Shown piece by piece: positions 19,586 through 32,132 of a DNA stretch of 64,000 nt; position 1 is the first letter of the stretch, and the number at the start of each line of letters is the position of its first letter. Under the pieces are notes generated by a model. It did no database searches. It was not told where the DNA came from and worked only from the letters and a program-made list of their open reading frames with translations. The stretch lies in assembly GCA_963666055.2 (NCBI GenBank), contig CAXWPH010000011.1, positions 224,001-288,000 on the forward strand, in the 5' to 3' direction. The position numbers and the translations under genes are program-made. This DNA is from Acidobacteriota bacterium (GTDB lineage: Bacteria; Acidobacteriota; UBA890; WLXD01).

Positions 19586-19659
19586 CGTGACAAGAGACCG
19601 CCGATTCGTTGATTTTCTGTGTGTTTAAACGAACTTACGCTCGTCGATCGAATCTTTTG

Positions 19660-19815
19660 AGCTCCGATATCGGAGACTCGCATACCTGTGCTGCATACTC
19701 AGAGATGACTTATATTAAGTTATACAGATGTATATAGGCTAATACTATTGTTTAACAATGAATTAAAGATTTTAGTTGATTTATTATATGGTTTACTGCT
19801 TTTATAGTCACTGAG
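19660..19815. promoter_or_regulatory. AT-rich divergent control region with several palindromes
   Basis: 21 G+C in 19711-19810; palindromes CTCCGATATCGGAG (19662-75), ACTTA-tat-TAAGT (19708-20), TATACA-ga-TGTATA (19721-34), ATTGTT-t-AACAAT (19747-59). Confidence 0.6.
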
Positions 19816-19848
19816 ATCCAAGAACAAGCCCCCGCCGGACAAGGCCTA

Positions 19849-20289
19849 ATGAAGCTCGGACAGATACTTCTATTCCGCAAGCTGATCGGGCGCGATCAGC
19901 TTCGTGAAGCGCTGCGGCGCCAACGCGCTACGGGTCGCCCAGTCGGCGAGATCCTGCTGCGTATGGGCGTAATCTCCCGCGCCAATATCGTCGAAGCGCT
20001 GCTCGCACAGCCGAAAGCGTCGGTGAACGCCGCCGCGTTGGCGAAGGTGAGTGCAGAGGTCGTTCATGCAGTTCCACGTCCCCTAGCAGAACGGCACTGC
20101 TGCCTCGGGCTGGTACGCAGCGACGGGCATCTGGTACTTGCAATGGTGGACCCTCTGGATCAGTCGGTGATCGCCGAGGTCGAGGCGGCAACGCAGCTCT
20201 GCGTCCTACCCGTAGCAGCATCTGGCGGTGATCTACGGGACGCAATCGCAACCAAGTACACGAGCTCGCAAGCGTGCGGCGCAGACTAG
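19849..20289 (+). CDS. Stand-alone MshEN (GspE/PilB N-terminal) domain protein, putative c-di-GMP receptor
   Basis: KLGQILL..KLI....L..AL..Q and PVGEILL..GVI....I..AL..Q tandem motifs plus LAMVDPLD; no ATPase domain. Confidence 0.85.
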   Translation: MKLGQILLFRKLIGRDQLREALRRQRATGRPVGEILLRMGVISRANIVEALLAQPKASVNAAALAKVSAEVVHAVPRPLAERHCCLGLVRSDGHLVLAMVDPLDQSVIAEVEAATQLCVLPVAASGGDLRDAIATKYTSSQACGAD

Positions 20290-20314: not shown

Positions 20315-22462
20315 ATGCGCACCGACAGCATCCAAACGGACGCGGCTGAGCCTGACGGAGCCCTGGCGGAAGCGCTACAGCGGCTCGACATCGCCGTACA
20401 AACAAGCCGCATGTACCCCGCATCGGCGCCGACGGTCGTACAGTCCGTCGAAGTGGCTCATGCTTCGCTGGTGGCCGCGATAGGCGACGAGCCGGTTTCA
20501 CTCCAGATCCGACCCCAAGAGATCTCGTGGGTCGACCGCCTCACCAAGGAGACTCAATCCGCCATTCTCGAGCGCCTCGCAGAACAGCTTCACCGGCGGC
20601 ACGTTGCACGCCTCACTCTAGGCCCCGGCCTGTCTCTGGAGTCGGTCCTGACGCTGATTGGCGCCCTGGCGCAACGGGAATTCGAGCATAACGACGACGC
20701 CCTGTTGCTCGGAACGATCCCTGGGATCCGCGCGGATCCGCTGGAGCTGCAGGGCTTGGTCGACGGAGGCTCGCAACGCTTCGACCCGGACGACGTCTGG
20801 GGCCAGATCCTGGCTGAGTTCGGCAGCGGCACCGACGATAGCCCCGACTGGGAAGGCATCGCTTTGGATGCAGAGCGTGCGCGGGGCTTTCTCCGGTGGG
20901 CTCTGGATCCCGAGCATCAGCCGGCCGCGATGGCTCACCATTCCCAGACAGACGGTTTCACGCTGCTCGTCGAGCAGATCGCCGGGCGCGCGCCTCAGGT
21001 CGAGAACCTCATCGAAACGCTGGTCGAGGCCTCCACAAGCCTGTTCGACGAGCTCGACCTAGAGGCCTGGATCGACATCCTGACCGACCCGTTGCCGCTG
21101 CAGACTGACGAAGCGAGCGCCCCAGTCGATCTCACGAAACGCCTCGCGAAAGCACTCTCCAGCGGTCAAGTGATGCGCCTAGTGAACTACACCATGAGCT
21201 CGCGGTCGCGAGCTACGCCGCGACTCTACAAGTTCCTGTCGCGGGTCGTTGCCAGCCGCCCAGAGCGATCGGAGATCGCCAACCGTGCGGTACAGATGAC
21301 CAACAGCTCTCCGGTCGAGCTCGCCAAGGCATGGCCCGATCTAATCGAGGTCATGACAGGCGAGAACCCGGATCCTTTCCTGCACCGCGACTATCGAGCG
21401 TTGCTGGAGGACGACTCTGAGATCGGCAAGTCGGCATGGAACAGCGCCAAGGTCCGGGCGCGCTTCGGCGAGCTGGACGGCGACTCCCTGCGTGTACGAA
21501 AGACGCGGATCGCCCACTCGTTGTTGGTGAGCAATCGCGAGTCCCGCTTCTACGAGCACCTGGTGGATGCCCTCGGGAGCTCCCTCGAGACCATCGTGCG
21601 AATGGGCGAGCTGACGCTGCTGGAGGAGATCCTGCTCACGCTGGCGCAACATATCAGTGATGCCGACCGACCCGGCGCAGAGCGCCAGCTAGCCCATCAA
21701 GCGCTGCTTGGCATGCAACAGCGGGAGCTCATCGTGCTGCTCGTCCAGCGCCTCGCCCGGGCCGGCGGGGACGGCTTCCACGCCCTCTGGAGAATAGTGG
21801 AGCATCTGGGACAGCAGTTCCTGCCCGAATTGCTCCAGGCGCTTGCGACAACTAGGTCGCCCTCATACCGGCACCATCTACTACGCATCCTGCGAGGAGT
21901 CAGCGAGCTGCCGCTAGAGGAGTTCGGAGAGTCGCTCAACGACCGCCGCACACCGTATGTACGGGATTTCGTGTGGTTGCTGGCGGAGCTGCGCCGGCCG
22001 GAGCTGGCCCCGCTGCTGCAGGCTGCGGCAACCCACGCCGATGCCAAAGTCCGCAGCGAGGCGCTCGGCGGCTTCGCCTTCCTGTCCGACGAGCCATCGG
22101 AGCTTGCACTCCTTGAAGCCCTCGCAGACACCTCTCTCGAGGTGCGCGTGGCAGCGTTGCGGGCGTTCCGACAACGGTTCGCGAGCCGCTCGCAAGAGCG
22201 CCTGCTGGGCTATTTGTCGCTGCCCAACTGGAACGGCGAAAATACGCGGCTGATTGCCGCAGCCCTCAGTGTGCTCGGTCAGATCGGCGACGAAGCGGCT
22301 CTGGCGGCCATCGTGCCGTTGGCGCGGCGGACTTGGATATTCCGACGGCGTAGACGCACGGTGACCCAGGCGGCTATCGGCGCGGTGCAGAGCATCAACC
22401 AACGTGCGCAGCAGCGGAGCGCAGCAGCGCCACAACCGCAGGAAACTACCCGTGCCGCCTGA
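20315..22462 (+). CDS. HEAT-repeat protein with an uncharacterised N-terminal domain
   Basis: C-terminal HEAT/PBS-like repeats (HADAKVRSEAL, DTSLEVRVAAL); N-terminal YP-containing domain homologous to that of the downstream gene; ATG 20315 chosen. Confidence 0.8.
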   Translation: MRTDSIQTDAAEPDGALAEALQRLDIAVQTSRMYPASAPTVVQSVEVAHASLVAAIGDEPVSLQIRPQEISWVDRLTKETQSAILERLAEQLHRRHVARLTLGPGLSLESVLTLIGALAQREFEHNDDALLLGTIPGIRADPLELQGLVDGGSQRFDPDDVWGQILAEFGSGTDDSPDWEGIALDAERARGFLRWALDPEHQPAAMAHHSQTDGFTLLVEQIAGRAPQVENLIETLVEASTSLFDELDLEAWIDILTDPLPLQTDEASAPVDLTKRLAKALSSGQVMRLVNYTMSSRSRATPRLYKFLSRVVASRPERSEIANRAVQMTNSSPVELAKAWPDLIEVMTGENPDPFLHRDYRALLEDDSEIGKSAWNSAKVRARFGELDGDSLRVRKTRIAHSLLVSNRESRFYEHLVDALGSSLETIVRMGELTLLEEILLTLAQHISDADRPGAERQLAHQALLGMQQRELIVLLVQRLARAGGDGFHALWRIVEHLGQQFLPELLQALATTRSPSYRHHLLRILRGVSELPLEEFGESLNDRRTPYVRDFVWLLAELRRPELAPLLQAAATHADAKVRSEALGGFAFLSDEPSELALLEALADTSLEVRVAALRAFRQRFASRSQERLLGYLSLPNWNGENTRLIAAALSVLGQIGDEAALAAIVPLARRTWIFRRRRRTVTQAAIGAVQSINQRAQQRSAAAPQPQETTRAA

Positions 22463-23822
22463 GCGCTGTTCCCGAGAAGAGGTTCTGATAGATCTCGGCC
22501 GACATCTGCTGTGCGCCCAGCAGAGCCAAGCCATCTACCCAACAAACCACCCGCGCGCGGTCACCGCGCTCCGCGACCTTTACCTTCGTACGGTTGAGTT
22601 GCTGACCGAAGAGGGTGATCTGCGGTTCGCGCTGGCCGACCGCACGTTCATCTTCGACAACGAGGTCCTGCCGATCAACGGCGAGGTACTCGAAGGATTG
22701 GCGGAGCTGTTCTGTCGACGGGGCATCGGCCGCATGGCAGTGTCACGCGGGCTACGCCGGTGGGAGATTACGTCCCTTGTGCAGGCACTCAACGCGCAGA
22801 CCGAAGCCGACGAAGGCATCGAAGCTCTCCTTGCACGGGAGGGCGTCCAGCACGTCGAGGCAGCGCCACTAACCGGCCGAACCGGTGACCCGCGCGGTGG
22901 GTCGGCATCGAGCGGCCCGACGTTGTCGCGGGCCTGGGAGGTCTACTCGGCCAGCCTGGAGAACATGCGCCAGCTCAAGAGCCGCCTCAGCGACGGTATC
23001 GACGCCGACGCGATTGCCCAGGCTGGCTGTCTGGCCGGTGACTTGGTCGACGTCGTGCAAGCGCAGCCACAAGCGTTCTCGCTGCTGTACGCACTCAAGA
23101 ACCACGACGACTATTCGTACACGCACTCCCTGAACGTGGCGATGCTCTCCTTGACGATCGCCCGGTGGCTGGAGCTGCCGCACGAGATGCTCACGCAAGT
23201 CGCCCTCGCAGCTATTCTGCACGACATCGGCAAGGTGATGGTGCCCGACGGCGTGCTCAACAAGCCGGGAAAGCTAACCGACGAAGAGTGGGCGGTCATG
23301 CAGCGCCACGGCGACGACGGAGCGCGCCTGTTGCTCGAATCGCCGGTCAACGATCTGGTCTTCGTGGTTGCCTACGAGCACCAGCTGGCCTACGACGAGC
23401 GGCACACCGACTTCGGCCGGTGGCCGCTGCACCTGGTATCCGAGCTGGTGTGCCTAGCCGATGTATACGACGCGCTGCGGTCGGTTCGACCGTACCGCGA
23501 CTCGCTGCCACCCGACGTCGCCATGAGAATCATGGAGGAGGACGCCGAGACTAAGTTCGATGCCGACTTGTTCGCGGGATTCCGGCGCATGCTGGGCTAC
23601 TATCCTCCCGGAACTTGCTTGAGGCTCAGCGATGGTCGCACGGCGGTCGCGCGCACCACCAACCTCCTCGATCCGGAGCACCCGCGAGTGCTGGTTGTCC
23701 GCACCGTCGACGGCGACGAGATAGAGCCGCCGGAGGCTCTCGACCTGGCGCAAGCCGAGATCGACGTTGAGGAGGTCGCGGACCCGGAGCTCCTAGACAT
23801 CGACCCCGTCGACTATCTCTGA
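22452..23822 (+). CDS. HD-GYP-like (HD-domain) phosphohydrolase, atypical
   Basis: HDDYSYTHSLNV, LHDIGK, LNKPGKLTDEEW..MQRH, ADVYDAL...RPY; GTG 22452 overlaps the upstream gene's end, with AGGA upstream. Confidence 0.88.
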   Translation: MPPERCSREEVLIDLGRHLLCAQQSQAIYPTNHPRAVTALRDLYLRTVELLTEEGDLRFALADRTFIFDNEVLPINGEVLEGLAELFCRRGIGRMAVSRGLRRWEITSLVQALNAQTEADEGIEALLAREGVQHVEAAPLTGRTGDPRGGSASSGPTLSRAWEVYSASLENMRQLKSRLSDGIDADAIAQAGCLAGDLVDVVQAQPQAFSLLYALKNHDDYSYTHSLNVAMLSLTIARWLELPHEMLTQVALAAILHDIGKVMVPDGVLNKPGKLTDEEWAVMQRHGDDGARLLLESPVNDLVFVVAYEHQLAYDERHTDFGRWPLHLVSELVCLADVYDALRSVRPYRDSLPPDVAMRIMEEDAETKFDADLFAGFRRMLGYYPPGTCLRLSDGRTAVARTTNLLDPEHPRVLVVRTVDGDEIEPPEALDLAQAEIDVEEVADPELLDIDPVDYL

Positions 23823-23834
23823 CGTACCGGCCTG

Positions 23835-26141
23835 CTACGGACTCTGCACTTCCTCGCGCGGCACCGGGATGGTCTGAGTCCTGCCATCCTCGGTCGACTC
23901 GATGACAACCTCGTCGGTCTCGTAAACGACGCGCAAGGCGTCCCGACTCTTGTACTCGATGCCTCGATAGGCGAAGCGGGCGGGCACGGCAGGCGTTCCC
24001 CGTAGAAGTAACTCGCCGCTTTCCATGTTGTAGGTAAGCTCGTTTCCGCTTGCCTCCGCCTGGGTATCGCGGAACTGCACCGCGTCCTCGGCGACGACCT
24101 CGCTCCAGCCGCCTTCCTCACTGACCTCCACCCGGAGCTTGTCGGCCTCGATGATACGAGAGCGTTGGCGCATGCTGGCGGCACCACCGAGGCGCAGCTG
24201 CATACCGTCTTGCTCGACGAGAAGGTTGGCTGCGCTCACCGTGGCGTACTCGGGCTCCCCATCCTCGCCGGTCGCCGCTACCGCTACCAGCTCGACCGCG
24301 CCCTGGGCCCGCAGTCGCCCCGGATTCGACTCCAATCGCAGCTCGGCGGTTTCCAACGATTGTGATTCCCAGATGACCTGGACGTTGTCGCGCAGGATCA
24401 GCACCCCTTCGACATCGAGCTCGGCTGACTCGGCGGTCATCTCGACGGCCGGGGTATCGCCGAACAGCACGCTGGCCGCGTCGAGATACTCGTCGGCCAC
24501 GTCGGCGCGGATCGACCCAGTCGCCTCGATGCCCTCGTCCGGTCGCCACGTCATCTCGTCGGCGTACAGATCTACACCACTCGCCGACAGGACCGGGGCG
24601 GGGTCGCCATGTAGTCTCCAGGCGCCCGAGTCCGCGGTATACGAGGCGGCCCCCGCCGACATAGCGCGACCGTCAGCCTCGAACTCGACTCCATCCGGCC
24701 ATTCTGCCTCGTCAAGCGCCCCCTCGACCCAACTGGCAATCAGCTGCTCTCCGGTGAAAATGAGCGAAGCCTCGGAGCTCGACATCGCCAGATCTGCCAC
24801 GACGTTGCCGGCCGCTTCGACGCTCTGCAGGCCAGCTTCGCCAGCGGTGAGCATGAGCTCCGACGCAGTAAGCTCGCGCAAGCTCTCGGCGTCGCCGCGC
24901 GCGCGCCATGCAACGCCGCGGCGCGCCTCGACCGACTGACGGTCGCCATCGGGCCGGAGCTCGATCTCCCGCGCCTCCAGCCGCCCAAAGCCAGGCAACG
25001 TGAGTCGGGAACCCAGCCGTCCACTGATCGCTACGAGGGCGGCCAACTCACCGGTGGCAAATTCGATCCGGATGGTAGCTCCACGAAGGAGACGCACGTC
25101 GCCATCATCGCCGCCGCCTGTCGGGCTCGTGTCGCCAGCGGCTGGGCCGATATCGGCCACACCAGCGATGTCGGTGCTGTCGGTGCCAGCGACATCGACA
25201 GAGGCTACTTCGGAGTCCATCCCTGGCAGCCTGGTCACCTCGTCGTCAAGAGGTTCGACCTGCTCGCCGTCGCTTTCCAGCGCGGCCTGCGCGGCAGCCG
25301 CCGGATTGTCCGCGCGCGGGAAAAACCTTACCCGCGCCCCGCCCGTGGCCTCGATACGGCGCAGCTCGCTGACTCCTGATCCGACGTCGAGAACGATCTC
25401 GTCTGCGCGAACCGAGGCCTGGTTCATCTCCAGCTCGGCGGTTCCCTGCAGGCGCACCTGATCTCCGCCCGGCCGTACCCGCATCTCCTCGGCACTACCG
25501 CGCAGACCTGCCGGCATGGCGCCCTCACCGGCACCACGCCGCAGGGTCAAATCGCCCCACATCCGCAGCTCCTCTGCCACCACGTTCTGTCCGCTGGTAA
25601 CGTCGCCGGCCGTCTGGAAGTGAAGACAGTCCCCGCGCGACTCCATGCCCGCATAGAACAATGTGCTGCGGTTGCAGTTGCTGACCACACCGCTCACCAC
25701 GTCGTAATTGAGCCGCCGTGTTTCGAAGTACCCGTTGTTCGGCAACTCGGCGCGCACGTTACCGATGATGCGAATTTCGTCGAAGTCATCACCGTCCCCG
25801 CTTGTTCGCATCGTGTCGCCAACCACAACGACGTCCTTGTCGGGCCCGTCTTTGCCGAAGATACGCATGCGCACGCCAGCCCACGTGTTCCAGCCGTCGG
25901 AAAAATCGAGCAGCTCGTCGGCAGCAATCTCGTAGAGCTTGCGATTGCCGCGGAACTTGACGAAGTTGATCTTCTCGGTGTGCGACTCGACGCTACGATC
26001 GCCCTCCGGCATTGCCGGAACCTCAACGCGGTCGGAGGCGCGCTCGAGTCCCGCTGCCGGCTGCCAGCTGAGATACACCACCAACGACACCGCGACTGCG
26101 AGGCTTGCGAACGCGAGGCGGAGAAAGGCCGTGACTCGCAT
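23835..26141 (-). CDS. lptC: Fused LptC/LptA-like (multi-OstA beta-jellyroll) LPS transport periplasmic protein
   Basis: N-terminal TM followed by repeated beta-strand OstA-like units (A.G.V, ADE/ADK..Y); synteny with lptB and DUF507 genes. Confidence 0.72.
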   Translation of the reverse strand: MRVTAFLRLAFASLAVAVSLVVYLSWQPAAGLERASDRVEVPAMPEGDRSVESHTEKINFVKFRGNRKLYEIAADELLDFSDGWNTWAGVRMRIFGKDGPDKDVVVVGDTMRTSGDGDDFDEIRIIGNVRAELPNNGYFETRRLNYDVVSGVVSNCNRSTLFYAGMESRGDCLHFQTAGDVTSGQNVVAEELRMWGDLTLRRGAGEGAMPAGLRGSAEEMRVRPGGDQVRLQGTAELEMNQASVRADEIVLDVGSGVSELRRIEATGGARVRFFPRADNPAAAAQAALESDGEQVEPLDDEVTRLPGMDSEVASVDVAGTDSTDIAGVADIGPAAGDTSPTGGGDDGDVRLLRGATIRIEFATGELAALVAISGRLGSRLTLPGFGRLEAREIELRPDGDRQSVEARRGVAWRARGDAESLRELTASELMLTAGEAGLQSVEAAGNVVADLAMSSSEASLIFTGEQLIASWVEGALDEAEWPDGVEFEADGRAMSAGAASYTADSGAWRLHGDPAPVLSASGVDLYADEMTWRPDEGIEATGSIRADVADEYLDAASVLFGDTPAVEMTAESAELDVEGVLILRDNVQVIWESQSLETAELRLESNPGRLRAQGAVELVAVAATGEDGEPEYATVSAANLLVEQDGMQLRLGGAASMRQRSRIIEADKLRVEVSEEGGWSEVVAEDAVQFRDTQAEASGNELTYNMESGELLLRGTPAVPARFAYRGIEYKSRDALRVVYETDEVVIESTEDGRTQTIPVPREEVQSP

Positions 26142-26867: not shown

Positions 26868-28313
26868 TTACTCGATGCGTACCTTCGCCTCCAACGGAAC
26901 GGCGCCATCATCCAGACGGAGGCGCAGCACGTAGTCGCCGGCGACCCCTGCTGGCATCATTGCTTGAACGATCAGGGGGCCCGCCACCGCGTTGGTGCCC
27001 CAGTCGGCGCTCACCTCTTCGAGCTCAACCTCGGCGCCGGCCGAGTCGACTAGCGTCATGCGCACGGTTTCCGCATCAGGGACCTTGCCCCGAAGCCAGG
27101 TGAGGGCAGAGAAGCTGTCGCCCGCAATCAACCGCGGCTCGGCTCCGGAGATGATTCCCACCTCGCCCTCGCGTAACCGAGTCACTGACCGACCAATGAT
27201 CAGCGGGCTGGCAGCGCTACCGCTGTCGGAGATCTCCACCTCTCCATCCCACGTGAACGCCGTCTCCGAGAGCGGATCGAGCACGCGTACGTCTAGCGTG
27301 TATCCGCCTGCTTCCGCCCGCAATAGCAGTGCCGTGCGCAGCGACGCGGCCCCGATGCGCGCCACATCCGCCGCTGGCAAATCGACGGTCCATTCTTGCG
27401 TTCCACGCAACTCATCGGTACCGCCCAGACGCAGCAGCGATGCGTCAATCCGGAGCGTCGCCCGCAGACCATCACCGACAGGTTCGAACAACAGCCCCCG
27501 CAGAGGAATCTCGATTGGGATCACCAGGGCGCCCGCCACCCCGTTGATACCCCAGGTCTCGGCCAGCACGGTGAGCGGCTCGGTTCGCGCCACCGTCTCG
27601 CGAATCGCTACCCTCGTGCTGGCTGCTCCCGCACCGGGCCGGAACTCAGTCACGGTATCTACTAGAGCGCCCTCGTTGGTGAACAAGAACGCGGTTCGCA
27701 GGTCGGTCGGCATACCGCCGACGCCGAGCATGCCCGGATCGCAGAGCTCGAACTGGCCGATACGCGTCTCGACGAAGACCACGTGGAACTCGCCCATCTG
27801 CGACCGAAAGGCCATGTTGTTGGTGCGGTAGGTCCACCACTCCCCCTCCGGATACGAGCAGCGGCCGAAACCCCGCAAGTCCCTCCGGCGCATGCCTCCG
27901 GTGGGTCGGCCGAGGATAACCCAAACTCGGCCACGATCGGACCTCCAGCCACGAGGGAACCCGCGAAACCGCTTGTTCACGAAGGCTACCCGTCGGTAGA
28001 ACTCCTCCTGGAACGCGTGCCCCTCGTCGCGAGTATCAAGGTCGCGCCGGTCCCAGAACCACTTTATGAACTGACGGCGGAGCTCGTCGGTCTTCTGGTC
28101 CTTCCAGGTGTCGTGCTCGTAGTCCAGGATGAGGTATTCGACCGGGCCCCCAGCCCAGTCTTTGAGTGGCCGCTCCTCCTCATAGAAGCGTCGTGCCGCC
28201 TCCATGGTCTTGGGGAACTCGTCCTTCTGTGCAAACGCTGGACGGGTGGTGCCGATCGCTACGATCGGCAGAACAAGGACGATGAGGGCGCGAAATCGGT
28301 CAGGCAAAACCAT
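26868..28313 (-). CDS. GWxTD-domain secreted protein
   Basis: Signal peptide; FIKWFW..RD, EEFYRRVAFVN..F, GWRSDRGRVWVILGRP (GWxTD variant); beta-rich C-terminus. Confidence 0.85.
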   Translation of the reverse strand: MVLPDRFRALIVLVLPIVAIGTTRPAFAQKDEFPKTMEAARRFYEEERPLKDWAGGPVEYLILDYEHDTWKDQKTDELRRQFIKWFWDRRDLDTRDEGHAFQEEFYRRVAFVNKRFRGFPRGWRSDRGRVWVILGRPTGGMRRRDLRGFGRCSYPEGEWWTYRTNNMAFRSQMGEFHVVFVETRIGQFELCDPGMLGVGGMPTDLRTAFLFTNEGALVDTVTEFRPGAGAASTRVAIRETVARTEPLTVLAETWGINGVAGALVIPIEIPLRGLLFEPVGDGLRATLRIDASLLRLGGTDELRGTQEWTVDLPAADVARIGAASLRTALLLRAEAGGYTLDVRVLDPLSETAFTWDGEVEISDSGSAASPLIIGRSVTRLREGEVGIISGAEPRLIAGDSFSALTWLRGKVPDAETVRMTLVDSAGAEVELEEVSADWGTNAVAGPLIVQAMMPAGVAGDYVLRLRLDDGAVPLEAKVRIE

Positions 28314-29966: not shown

Positions 29967-32132
29967 TCAAGGCTGCGCGGCGCAGAAGACCTCGAACGCG
30001 GGAGCCACAGTGCCGGGCGGCGCACCCGCACGCAGTAGTTCGGAGATCAGCGGCGTCGCAGCACAGGCGCCAGGTAGCAGGCTCGCCAGCGTCTGGCCAT
30101 CGTCGCGCCCCGCTCCGATGAGCCACCGGAGCGCCGCGTGAAGATCGTGGAGCGTCGCCAGGACCGACTCCAACGACATGTCGTCGCGTGGGCTGGCGAA
30201 GCGCACGAAGGCCTGCGCGATGCCCAACGGGGTCAGCACTCGGCCGAGAGTCTGGCCAGATTCGTCGAGCACTCCCCACCAGCCGTGCAAAGTCTCGTCG
30301 CCACGGTCGATCGGTCGCGCCAATCCCACCAGCAGCCGCCCGTTTGCGAGGTCAGCCTGTGCCACCGATTGGGCCGCAGCCGGCCATTGCTCTGGCGAGG
30401 CATCCTCGGCGAGCCACCACTGCAACCGGCCGCCGCTGCCGACAGCCCGTAGCGTCACGTCAAAGGCAGTCACCGGCGGGCGGTCTGCAACACGGTTCAA
30501 CACCTGGCCCGTGAGTGCCGAGCGCAACAGCCCGTACGCGCCGGCAGTCGCCGATCTCTGGTGGCGCTCCAGCCCGCCGAGGCGCAGCGGATCGCTCGTC
30601 CAAACCGTCAGTCGACCCTCGCTCTCCACAGCGGGCGGCGTCCAGTGCACGGCTGCCATGCGGGCGGAACCCCGATACGCCCCCCGGGCGGGTGGCCGCA
30701 GGCTCTCACCAGCCACCAGCAGGGCAACAGCGATGGCATCCAGGCCGTCCCTTTCGAGCACCTGCCAGGACCGTAGTGCGGCGATGTGCAACGCCGTTGC
30801 CGGGTGCTCGGGGTCGCCGGCCTCGACCTTCGGTCCGGCTGGCCGCAGCTCCAGCACCGGTCCCACGGGCGGCGACATCGAACGGTTGCGCGGTCGCACC
30901 GCCCACGCTTCGAAAGCTGCGAGCTCGGCAACCGACAGCTCACTCAACGCGTCGAAAAGGGGCACCGTCCGATCCCGGAGGTAGGCTCGCGGCATCGCGC
31001 CAGAAGCGAAGACAACCGCCAGGCGCGCCAGCGGGTCGGCGCCGAACGGGATGCGGGCATGAATGTCAGACCCCATTGGGACGTCAACGTCGATCTCGAG
31101 CTCGACCTGTGCAAGTTCAGCAAGCTCAATCAGCGGGGTAATGGCCGTTCGGCCCGCAGCCCTGAGCTGCAGCGCCACGGATCCAACCGGGGCGGGAACC
31201 AGCACGTCGGCGAGGGCCGCGGCAAGTCGCGCTGCCGCTTCGGCTTCTTCGCCGAGTGGCTCATCAGGCGGAGCGTCCTCCAGCGAAGCCTCCGTATCCA
31301 CGACCACGACCTCGACGAGATCCTCCGAGGCGTTTTCTACGACGCGATCTAGGCGCACGATCGAGCCAATCAACTCGCCCAGCGGCAACTCCAGGTTCAC
31401 AAGCGTAGCTTCGTCGAGCTGAACGCGGATCGACGCCATCGTACGGAGAACCGCCGGTGGCGCATCGAAGGCCGCACCTCGTTGCCCGACCGTCTCGCCA
31501 ATGGCGGTGCCGGCAAACGACGCATCCATGGCAATCCATTGATCGTCCCGACGTACTTCTAGCCACCAGTGGTCGGCGGCCATCTCGATCCACCGGAGCC
31601 AGGGATCGCCACGGCCAGTGTGTGTGGCGGCAGGTTCGCCTACCAGCGCCACCGCGTCGCGCCACGCAAGGCGGCCGCGCACCAGCCTCACAGCGATGCC
31701 ACGGGCGCGATAAAGCCCCGCAAGCAGCAGCGTCTGGTCGAGCGAGTTACCGCTGGACGCCAGCAAAGCGCCGCGAGCGCCGCGCACACTGCCGGCGTAG
31801 GGCTCGTATCGTACCTGGCGTTGAACGAAACGAAACGGCCCCTCGATACCGGGTTCGAGTCTGGCGCTCAGCGTTGCTACGTCATCGCCCGCTGGTGCGC
31901 GGCGGGGCGACTGGAGCCCCAGCATTACCTCCTCGACATCGACACGCTCAAAAAACGTTCGCAACGTAGCGACCGCCGCGTCAGGCCATTGAACGACCGG
32001 CTCAGCATCCAACTGCTGTACCTGCTGCGCGCTCGCGACCAGGTCAGGCAAGATGCAGATACTCACCCCGACAACGACGATGCACGGCCACACCCGCCTG
32101 CAGGGGGCCGAACCCAAGCTACTGGAGACCAT
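29967..32132 (-). CDS. Secreted hypothetical protein with transglutaminase-like N-terminal domain
   Basis: YEPYAGSVRGARGALL...GNSLDQ.LLL..L.R..G...R...G, DHWWLEV, W..MDAS; signal-peptide-like N-terminus. Confidence 0.65.
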   Translation of the reverse strand: MVSSSLGSAPCRRVWPCIVVVGVSICILPDLVASAQQVQQLDAEPVVQWPDAAVATLRTFFERVDVEEVMLGLQSPRRAPAGDDVATLSARLEPGIEGPFRFVQRQVRYEPYAGSVRGARGALLASSGNSLDQTLLLAGLYRARGIAVRLVRGRLAWRDAVALVGEPAATHTGRGDPWLRWIEMAADHWWLEVRRDDQWIAMDASFAGTAIGETVGQRGAAFDAPPAVLRTMASIRVQLDEATLVNLELPLGELIGSIVRLDRVVENASEDLVEVVVVDTEASLEDAPPDEPLGEEAEAAARLAAALADVLVPAPVGSVALQLRAAGRTAITPLIELAELAQVELEIDVDVPMGSDIHARIPFGADPLARLAVVFASGAMPRAYLRDRTVPLFDALSELSVAELAAFEAWAVRPRNRSMSPPVGPVLELRPAGPKVEAGDPEHPATALHIAALRSWQVLERDGLDAIAVALLVAGESLRPPARGAYRGSARMAAVHWTPPAVESEGRLTVWTSDPLRLGGLERHQRSATAGAYGLLRSALTGQVLNRVADRPPVTAFDVTLRAVGSGGRLQWWLAEDASPEQWPAAAQSVAQADLANGRLLVGLARPIDRGDETLHGWWGVLDESGQTLGRVLTPLGIAQAFVRFASPRDDMSLESVLATLHDLHAALRWLIGAGRDDGQTLASLLPGACAATPLISELLRAGAPPGTVAPAFEVFCAAQP

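Follow-up and report, generated by a model that had tools for sequence, protein, structure and literature searches.

Two adjacent genes in a 64-kb stretch of DNA from an Acidobacteriota bacterium (contig CAXWPH010000011.1, positions 224,001 to 288,000; hereafter the window) encode a HEAT-repeat protein and an HD-GYP-type protein that begin with the same N-terminal domain (NTD). Judged from its sequences, the NTD is a real, widespread and uncatalogued domain that defines a two-gene cyclic-dinucleotide signalling unit; the binding mechanism that we attach to it is only a proposal. We give about an even chance, a probability of roughly 0.5, to the NTD being an interaction module, a handle by which the HD-GYP-type protein may bind to a HEAT scaffold. 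A first-pass annotation of the window had already noticed a homologous N-terminal segment in the two proteins, and this observation is borne out: both of the segments that it quoted are present in the sequence. It was also correct in finding no named family, since Pfam and NCBIfam have none for the NTD in either window protein or in 44 homologues of the HD-type NTD. The domain is about 135 amino acids long rather than the 110 or so first suggested. The YP(xx)P motif described there occurs in both proteins, but the family form is Y-P-x-x-H-P, and the HEAT copy reads YPASAP.

The relationship between the two NTDs was recovered by sequence, HMM and profile comparisons. BLASTP with the first 150 amino acids of the HEAT and HD proteins found 31 identities in 110 positions (E=2e-6), and the Smith-Waterman score of the two NTDs, 83, was not equalled in any of 5000 shuffles (mean 29.7, maximum 73). 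Among the 37,765 six-frame open reading frames (ORFs) of the genome, the NTDs are each other's best non-self phmmer match (E=0.0096 and 0.022). A hidden Markov model built from the HD-type NTD and 40 of its 44 database matches, with the window HEAT protein left out and four matches to TPR or other repeats removed as repeat artefacts, retrieved the HEAT NTD at E=4.8e-15; the runner-up scored E=0.94. The profile-profile check proposed in the first-pass annotation proved significant, with 27 HD-type NTDs matching 26 HEAT-type NTDs over 137 columns at a probability of 99.5% (E=9.9e-23). When full-length profiles of 61 rows each were used, the match was confined to 133 NTD columns and other alignments had probabilities of 0.6 or less. 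Chance similarity is thus ruled out by the genome-wide reciprocal search, the HMM and the profile-profile match. A structure search of the ESM Atlas with the NTD of a Desulfuromonas HEAT protein returned HEAT clusters and one HD cluster at template-modelling scores of 0.85-0.95; these clusters carry no family on the aligned part.

A survey with a 43-row NTD profile found the domain in 110 of the 301 genomes from the phylum of the window and in 72 of 151 from the phylum of Geobacter sp. OR-1; Actinomycetota and Gemmatimonadota are the further commonest taxa among Atlas clusters that contain it. We fetched 109 loci, picked from the top matches and therefore not a random sample, and found 192 NTD ORFs in them: 96 NTD-HEAT, 77 NTD-HD, 10 GGDEF/AAA fusions and 9 that were other or broken. 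An NTD gene lies upstream, on the same strand and within 3 kb, of 76 of the 77 NTD-HD genes (the exception is at a contig end), and in 69 cases it is an intact NTD-HEAT gene; the reverse order alone was never seen. A more sensitive count placed an NTD gene in front of 66 of 68 NTD-HD genes, the second exception (L043) coming from a frameshift-rich assembly. At L016 and at four loci of genome G012 (L035, L037, L043, L100), HEAT or HD genes are broken into several ORFs, likely by assembly frameshifts. The dependence runs one way: 69 of the 96 NTD-HEAT genes have an NTD-HD gene behind them. Solo NTD-HEAT genes, in some cases arranged as tandem pairs, form a clade, and the stretches fetched around them contain no NTD-HD neighbour (L052, L056, L057, L068, L071, L074, L075, L101, L102). 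A FastTree phylogeny of 164 NTDs places the 68 HD-type copies together in one group (support 0.86), and cognate NTDs are hardly more alike (20.6% identity) than non-cognate ones (18.9%), so the split between the HD and HEAT types looks old and the pair looks co-inherited. Repeated local duplication within each operon is ruled out by the same data. This old split, the weak resemblance of cognate copies and the frequency of solo NTD-HEAT genes would also suit an NTD that is a relic of an old duplication or fusion, with the genes kept together for co-regulation and both NTDs binding a common third target, for instance a protein of the membrane or the pole. We consider this quite improbable: the scanned loci share no conserved third gene, a link to an MshEN or ATPase gene is seen only in the order to which the window belongs, and the fixed order and tight abutment of the two genes suit a stoichiometric pair.

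The NTD is also fused to other signalling domains. The arrangement GGDEF-AAA-NTD-HEAT, with one or two NTDs, accounts for 16 of 32 matches and nine locus ORFs. Proteins of this kind, 1200-1470 amino acids long with a STAND-like AAA domain, are found at L094, L097, L112-L115, L117 and L122 and among P0060-P0078, and at L122 two of the genes lie side by side in tandem. Their active-site loop is GGDEF or AGDEF, the latter in the Desulfobacterota copies. Further architectures are NTD-HEAT-cNMP, NTD-HEAT-cNMP-PilZ, NTD..PilZ, NTD-NTD alone and, in 3 of 40 matches, NTD..HisKA. At L116 (5484-12000) and L121 (3815-8480) NTD-HEAT-cNMP(-PilZ) genes are followed by a gene for a DnaB_C/RecA-like ATPase. 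In Geobacter sp. OR-1 (L104, 3947-8614) an NTD-HEAT gene, an NTD-HD-GYP gene with the GYP motif intact and a gene for a membrane-anchored GGDEF protein form one overlapping run.

AlphaFold2 produced a confident model of the HD-type NTD (predicted local distance difference test 92.7, predicted template-modelling score (pTM) 0.87) in which the Y-P-x-x-H-P loop connects two long helices, with, after them, a three-strand meander, a helix, a strand, two helices and a strand. Foldseek found no match to the model at E<=0.001 in the PDB or BFVD; the best VIA-align Z score against 48,161 chains was 7.1, nearly all of it on the first helix hairpin, and 5.4 for a model of two NTDs in tandem. ESM Atlas feature searches with the NTD gave leads that all scored under 0.9. 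A new fold cannot be concluded from this absence of matches. A sequence search of the PDB with NTD profiles returned only the designed protein Octarellin V.1 (E=1.3e-4, 39 columns), which we judged to be a chance match. Conservation was assessed in 251 NTDs, left from 319 after de-duplication at 80%. The signature Tyr is kept in 246 of them, with His in the other five and never Phe, which leaves room for a role in ligand binding or contact. The signature His position holds H (164), S (49), N (26), T (6), A (5) or D (1). H, S, N, T or D before Pro is a helix N-cap pattern, and its occurrence in 246 of the 251 NTDs speaks for a structural role more than for a catalytic or metal-binding one. The HEAT NTD has Ser or Ala in place of this His throughout the order of the window (18 of 59 pairs, all lacking GYP in the HD partner), but this is a single lineage and cannot be scored as co-evolution. 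These data bear on the possibility that the NTD senses a small molecule or a metal, in which case both proteins would respond to the same signal with no binding through the domain. The near-invariant Tyr and the retention of His in 73 of 80 HD-type NTDs would agree with such a sensor, as would the location of the domain at the N-terminus of an HD-GYP protein, the usual site of sensor domains (10.1101/2021.11.05.467447). We regard it as unlikely, since the only conserved polar residues are Tyr23, His27 and Glu99, the remaining conserved columns being hydrophobic, Gly, Ala or Pro, and since S, N, T, A or D replaces the His in 87 of 251 NTDs, including the HEAT copies of the window's order and 29 of 30 GGDEF-fused copies.

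The HD-GYP-type domain of the HD protein is preserved in part. Pfam recognises HD (E=3.8e-15) and HD_5 (E=1.8e-18); the HD dyad, H257-D258, is present and H225, K261, K271, H286, H310 and D337 are retained, together with the substrate-binding residues K271-P-G (KPG) and R346-P-Y-R349 (RxYR). The HHExh(D/N)GxGYP motif is not preserved: in the alignment to PmGH, whose numbering is shifted by 6 relative to the published one, HHE becomes H310-Q311-L312 and GYP is replaced by H-T-D. The second His of HHE is, we assume from the PmGH structure, a metal ligand. It is Gln in 8 of 69 aligned rows, all from the family of the window, and GYP is missing across the whole order. The NTD-HD family at large has E-H-H-[LIM] instead of HHE, and a Glu precedes the two His in 66 of 69 members. 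The position of E185 in the three-metal site is Y221 in the window protein and Tyr likewise in 57 of 69 family members; HD-GYPs without E185 are described as a two-metal subtype (10.1101/2021.11.05.467447). The ratio of non-synonymous to synonymous substitution rates (dN/dS) in the HD domain is 0.07-0.09 in comparisons with three congeners, and with the closest one it is 0.26. These values are near those of the neighbouring gene that we take to be lptB (0.05-0.10) and point to strong purifying selection on the HD domain; the HEAT gene gave 0.12-0.25. As the protein descends from HD-GYPs yet fails the GYP and HHE test, we call it HD-GYP-type. The first-pass annotation had called it a phosphodiesterase; with HHE and GYP altered, that name needs a caveat here, as the protein may instead serve for binding or work as a slow enzyme. 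Elsewhere in the family, 21 of 77 NTD-HD proteins have RxYQ (L036, L047, L050, L053-L055, L058, L059, L061, L064, L066, L067 and others), a variant reported to favour cyclic GMP-AMP (cGAMP) (10.1101/600031). Several loci have two tandem HEAT/HD pairs, one with RxYQ and one with RxYR.

Directly upstream of the pair lies a third gene of the same strand, overlooked at first pass, as was the wider set of NTD architectures. Its stand-alone product matches Pfam MshEN (E=2e-11; 44.1 bits, cut-off 23.1) and NF053729 (55.8 bits, cut-off 38) and has two 24-residue motifs separated by a 5-residue linker. Motif 1 agrees with the RLGxxL..G....L...L..Q pattern at nine of 11 defined positions and motif 2 at eight, following the definition in PMC12943098. 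A sister family has at the same site, between lptB and lptA/C as we label them, a whole MshEN-T2SSE-double-zinc-ribbon ATPase followed by the HEAT/HD pair (L027, 1796-6967; also L028, L031, L033, L037); at L027 a DnaJ-domain gene lies between the ATPase and the pair. The window protein is 35-38% identical (88-99 bits) to the N-termini of these syntenic ATPases, compared with at most 64 bits to the PilB-like proteins of its own genome. With the sister-family ATPase as query, no close orthologue was found in the window genome or ten others of its family, the best matches having 41-52% identity. The window gene is evidently the N-terminal remnant of a PilB/GspE-like ATPase that the sister family has kept whole. 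Its dN/dS is 0.07-0.16, and pseudogene decay of the MshEN or HD gene is ruled out by these ratios. Local profiles identified seven other HD-GYP-type ORFs, five GGDEF ORFs and other PilB-like ATPases in the genome.

The homology of the NTDs, the fixed and overlapping gene order, the one-way dependence, the single clade of HD-type NTDs and the fusions to nucleotide-signalling domains support an NTD that serves as an interaction handle. On this proposal the HEAT protein would recruit, as a scaffold, the HD-GYP-type protein whose gene lies directly behind its own, and cyclic-dinucleotide turnover or sensing would thereby be kept within a single local complex. The HD NTD might pair with the NTD of the HEAT protein, as the tandem-NTD proteins suggest, or it might displace that NTD from the solenoid and sit there in its stead. 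In the lineage of the window the HD protein, conserved yet lacking GYP and one His of HHE, would likely be a cyclic di-GMP (c-di-GMP) binder or a slow 'trigger' enzyme. Together with the co-encoded MshEN protein it may act on pilus or secretion ATPases of the PilB/GspE type, because a whole MshEN-ATPase occupies the MshEN position in the sister family.

Several observations weigh against an interaction handle. The AlphaFold2 model of a tandem NTD has both halves folded but a pTM of 0.54 (from a 23-row alignment with the last 27 or so columns out of register), and so gives no confident packing of two copies. A paired 65-row prediction of the complex of HEAT and HD NTDs scored 0.00 in two runs against a mark of 0.32, with controls that did not fold, and weighs neither for nor against the handle. 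Distance matrices of 59 cognate pairs correlate about equally across all region pairs (Spearman 0.50-0.58; NTD with NTD 0.58), showing no NTD-specific co-evolution signal. For 27 of the 96 NTD-HEAT genes there is no NTD-HD gene next to them, and the neighbours scanned were varied. The near-invariant Tyr and the His of the HD-type NTDs could mark a ligand site, and the first Arg is replaced in both MshEN motifs (K2, P31), which makes c-di-GMP binding by that protein uncertain. The first-pass annotation had proposed that homotypic docking of NTDs couples the phosphodiesterase to its scaffold. The module, the ordered and co-inherited unit and the nucleotide-signalling fusions are in its favour, and direct NTD-to-NTD contact is plausible, although neither the tandem model nor the correlations lend it support. 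The NTD might instead serve self-oligomerisation, for example in forming an active HD-GYP dimer, with HEAT-HD contact a secondary hetero-dimer or made through other surfaces. Tandem NTDs exist, and a dimer-promoting role has been proposed for the DUF3391 domain of the related Bd1817 family (10.1101/2021.11.05.467447). We think self-oligomerisation distinctly unlikely, for by itself it leaves the NTD gene ahead of nearly every NTD-HD gene unexplained, and the tandem model has no confident packing of the copies.

A bolder form of the interaction-handle proposal makes the NTD a general docking plug for cyclic-dinucleotide signalling hubs of a class not yet described, in which HEAT scaffolds capture NTD-matched HD-GYPs or are fused to GGDEF-AAA, cNMP or PilZ domains. 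In Acidobacteriota, Desulfobacterota and other phyla a large HD-GYP family would have such a scaffold as an obligate partner; here the hub would have been rewired as an MshEN protein, a scaffold and a degenerate HD-GYP receptor that control pilus ATPases in trans. We hold this only tentatively and consider it doubtful.

Comparison with known systems places the HD protein near, but outside, described families. It matches PmGH (PDB 4MCW/4MDZ), one of the HD-GYP phosphodiesterases along with PmxA and Bd2325, at E=4.8e-22 over residues 209-374, and shares with these c-di-GMP/cGAMP enzymes the HD dyad, KPG, RxY(K/R) and most metal ligands; it differs in the HHE and GYP changes already described. 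Like the Bd1817 family (DUF3391-HD-GYP; PF11871; PDB 3TM8; PA4108, VC2497) it has an unexplained cytoplasmic N-terminal domain of about 120-140 amino acids before the HD-GYP domain, and residues 194-298 match 3TM8 (E=2.4e-5). PF11871 itself gave no match in the window protein at E<=1 or in 44 homologues at E<=1e-3. DUF3391 is described as four strands followed by two long helices, whereas the NTD is predicted to have two long helices and then a mixed sheet, and the ESM Atlas feature score of the NTD with a DUF3391 cluster (0.75) is at noise level. A PF11871 search of 21 Geobacter-related genomes found nothing over the cut-off, but neither did 14 controls. Almost all DUF3391 proteins are DUF3391-HD-GYP, and the available text of the 2021 HD-GYP census does not mention a HEAT partner or fusions to GGDEF, PilZ or cNMP. 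The same source (10.1101/2021.11.05.467447) describes degenerate HD-GYP regulators (HnoD, ECA3548, RpfG) that, as here, combine an altered active site with a proposed role in protein contact; the window protein is degenerate to a milder degree, with HD intact, and the partner proposed for it, a HEAT solenoid, bears the same NTD as the enzyme. The HEAT/HD unit may also be likened to local or 'trigger' c-di-GMP modules, in which a source or sink is co-localised with an effector (PMC10211494). The MshEN protein has two 24-residue motifs and a linker laid out as in the receptor domain of MshE, PilB and GspE (PMC12943098) and differs in standing alone and in its K and P for the first Arg. Our literature search, which covered sources other than subscription journals and the tables and supplements of the census, found no description of the NTD or the HEAT/HD pair, and the word 'heat' is absent from the main text of the census.

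The census pointed to many HD-GYP proteins with undefined N-terminal domains and to more that await delineation (10.1101/2021.11.05.467447). One such domain is now delineated and has a candidate partner; between roughly one-third and one-half of the genomes sampled in two phyla contain it. Should the enzymes need the HEAT protein as a subunit, it has been wrong to model them as one-component systems, and work on the isolated enzyme could overlook how it is regulated. Because cultured Geobacter and Desulfuromonas strains have the two-gene unit, it can be used to test how specificity arises among many c-di-GMP enzymes, and the Geobacter sp. OR-1 locus is a convenient test system. The many RxYQ enzymes of the NTD-HD family are candidates for cGAMP turnover.

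The features of the locus are listed below. The GTG start of the HD gene, which overlaps the HEAT stop by 11 nt, is the most likely one and agrees with a 456-aa database record; a homologue with 75% identity to its product is assigned to Acidobacteriota. HEAT_2 is matched in three stretches of the HEAT protein at 35.2 bits, above the gathering cut-off of 27.7.

Features of the MshEN-HEAT-HD locus (positions in the window)
Feature	Coordinates	Strand	Evidence
Stand-alone MshEN-type protein, 146 aa, predicted first operon gene	19849..20289	+	Pfam MshEN, NF053729
NTD-HEAT protein, 715 aa: shared NTD, unassigned middle of about 330 aa, C-terminal HEAT repeats	20315..22462	+	HEAT_2 E=1.5e-8
NTD copy 1, HEAT type, about residues 14-147	20354..20755	+	profile searches
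Signature loop of copy 1, Y34-P-A-S-A-P39; Ala at the family His position	20414..20431	+	
HEAT-repeat region, about residues 488-690	21776..22384	+	Pfam/NCBIfam, conservation
NTD-HD-GYP-type protein, 456 aa	22452..23822	+	Pfam HD/HD_5; likely GTG start
NTD copy 2, HD type, about residues 9-144	22476..22883	+	profiles, AlphaFold2 model
Signature loop of copy 2, Y29-P-T-N-H-P34	22536..22553	+	
HD-GYP-type domain	23079..23591	+	alignment to PmGH
C-terminal extension of HD protein, without Pfam match	23592..23819	+	

The three plus-strand genes sit between lptB (minus strand) and a convergent lptA/C-like gene. An AT-rich spacer (19620-19820) separates the divergent lptB and MshEN genes in a region of 63% GC; a promoter scan of it found two sigma-70-like sites, both on the minus strand, and none on the plus strand. 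An Rfam scan of the window found one tRNA only and no riboswitch at the gathering score. The gene in the lptC/lptA position (23835-26141, minus strand) encodes 768 amino acids and has no NCBIfam match at E<=1e-25; from its length we presume a fused or repeated LptC/LptA-type protein. At the same threshold NCBIfam has no match for a 481-aa protein (26868-28313, minus strand), which we take to resemble GWxTD-domain proteins, or for a 721-aa protein (29967-32132, minus strand). The genes that we label as phosphotransferase system (PTS), hpf, rpoN and lptB were presumptively named by reading their translations, with no library match behind the names. The window as a whole is a housekeeping region, in which NCBIfam matches identify hrcA, prfB, lnt, ribosomal protein genes and rpoA/B/C.

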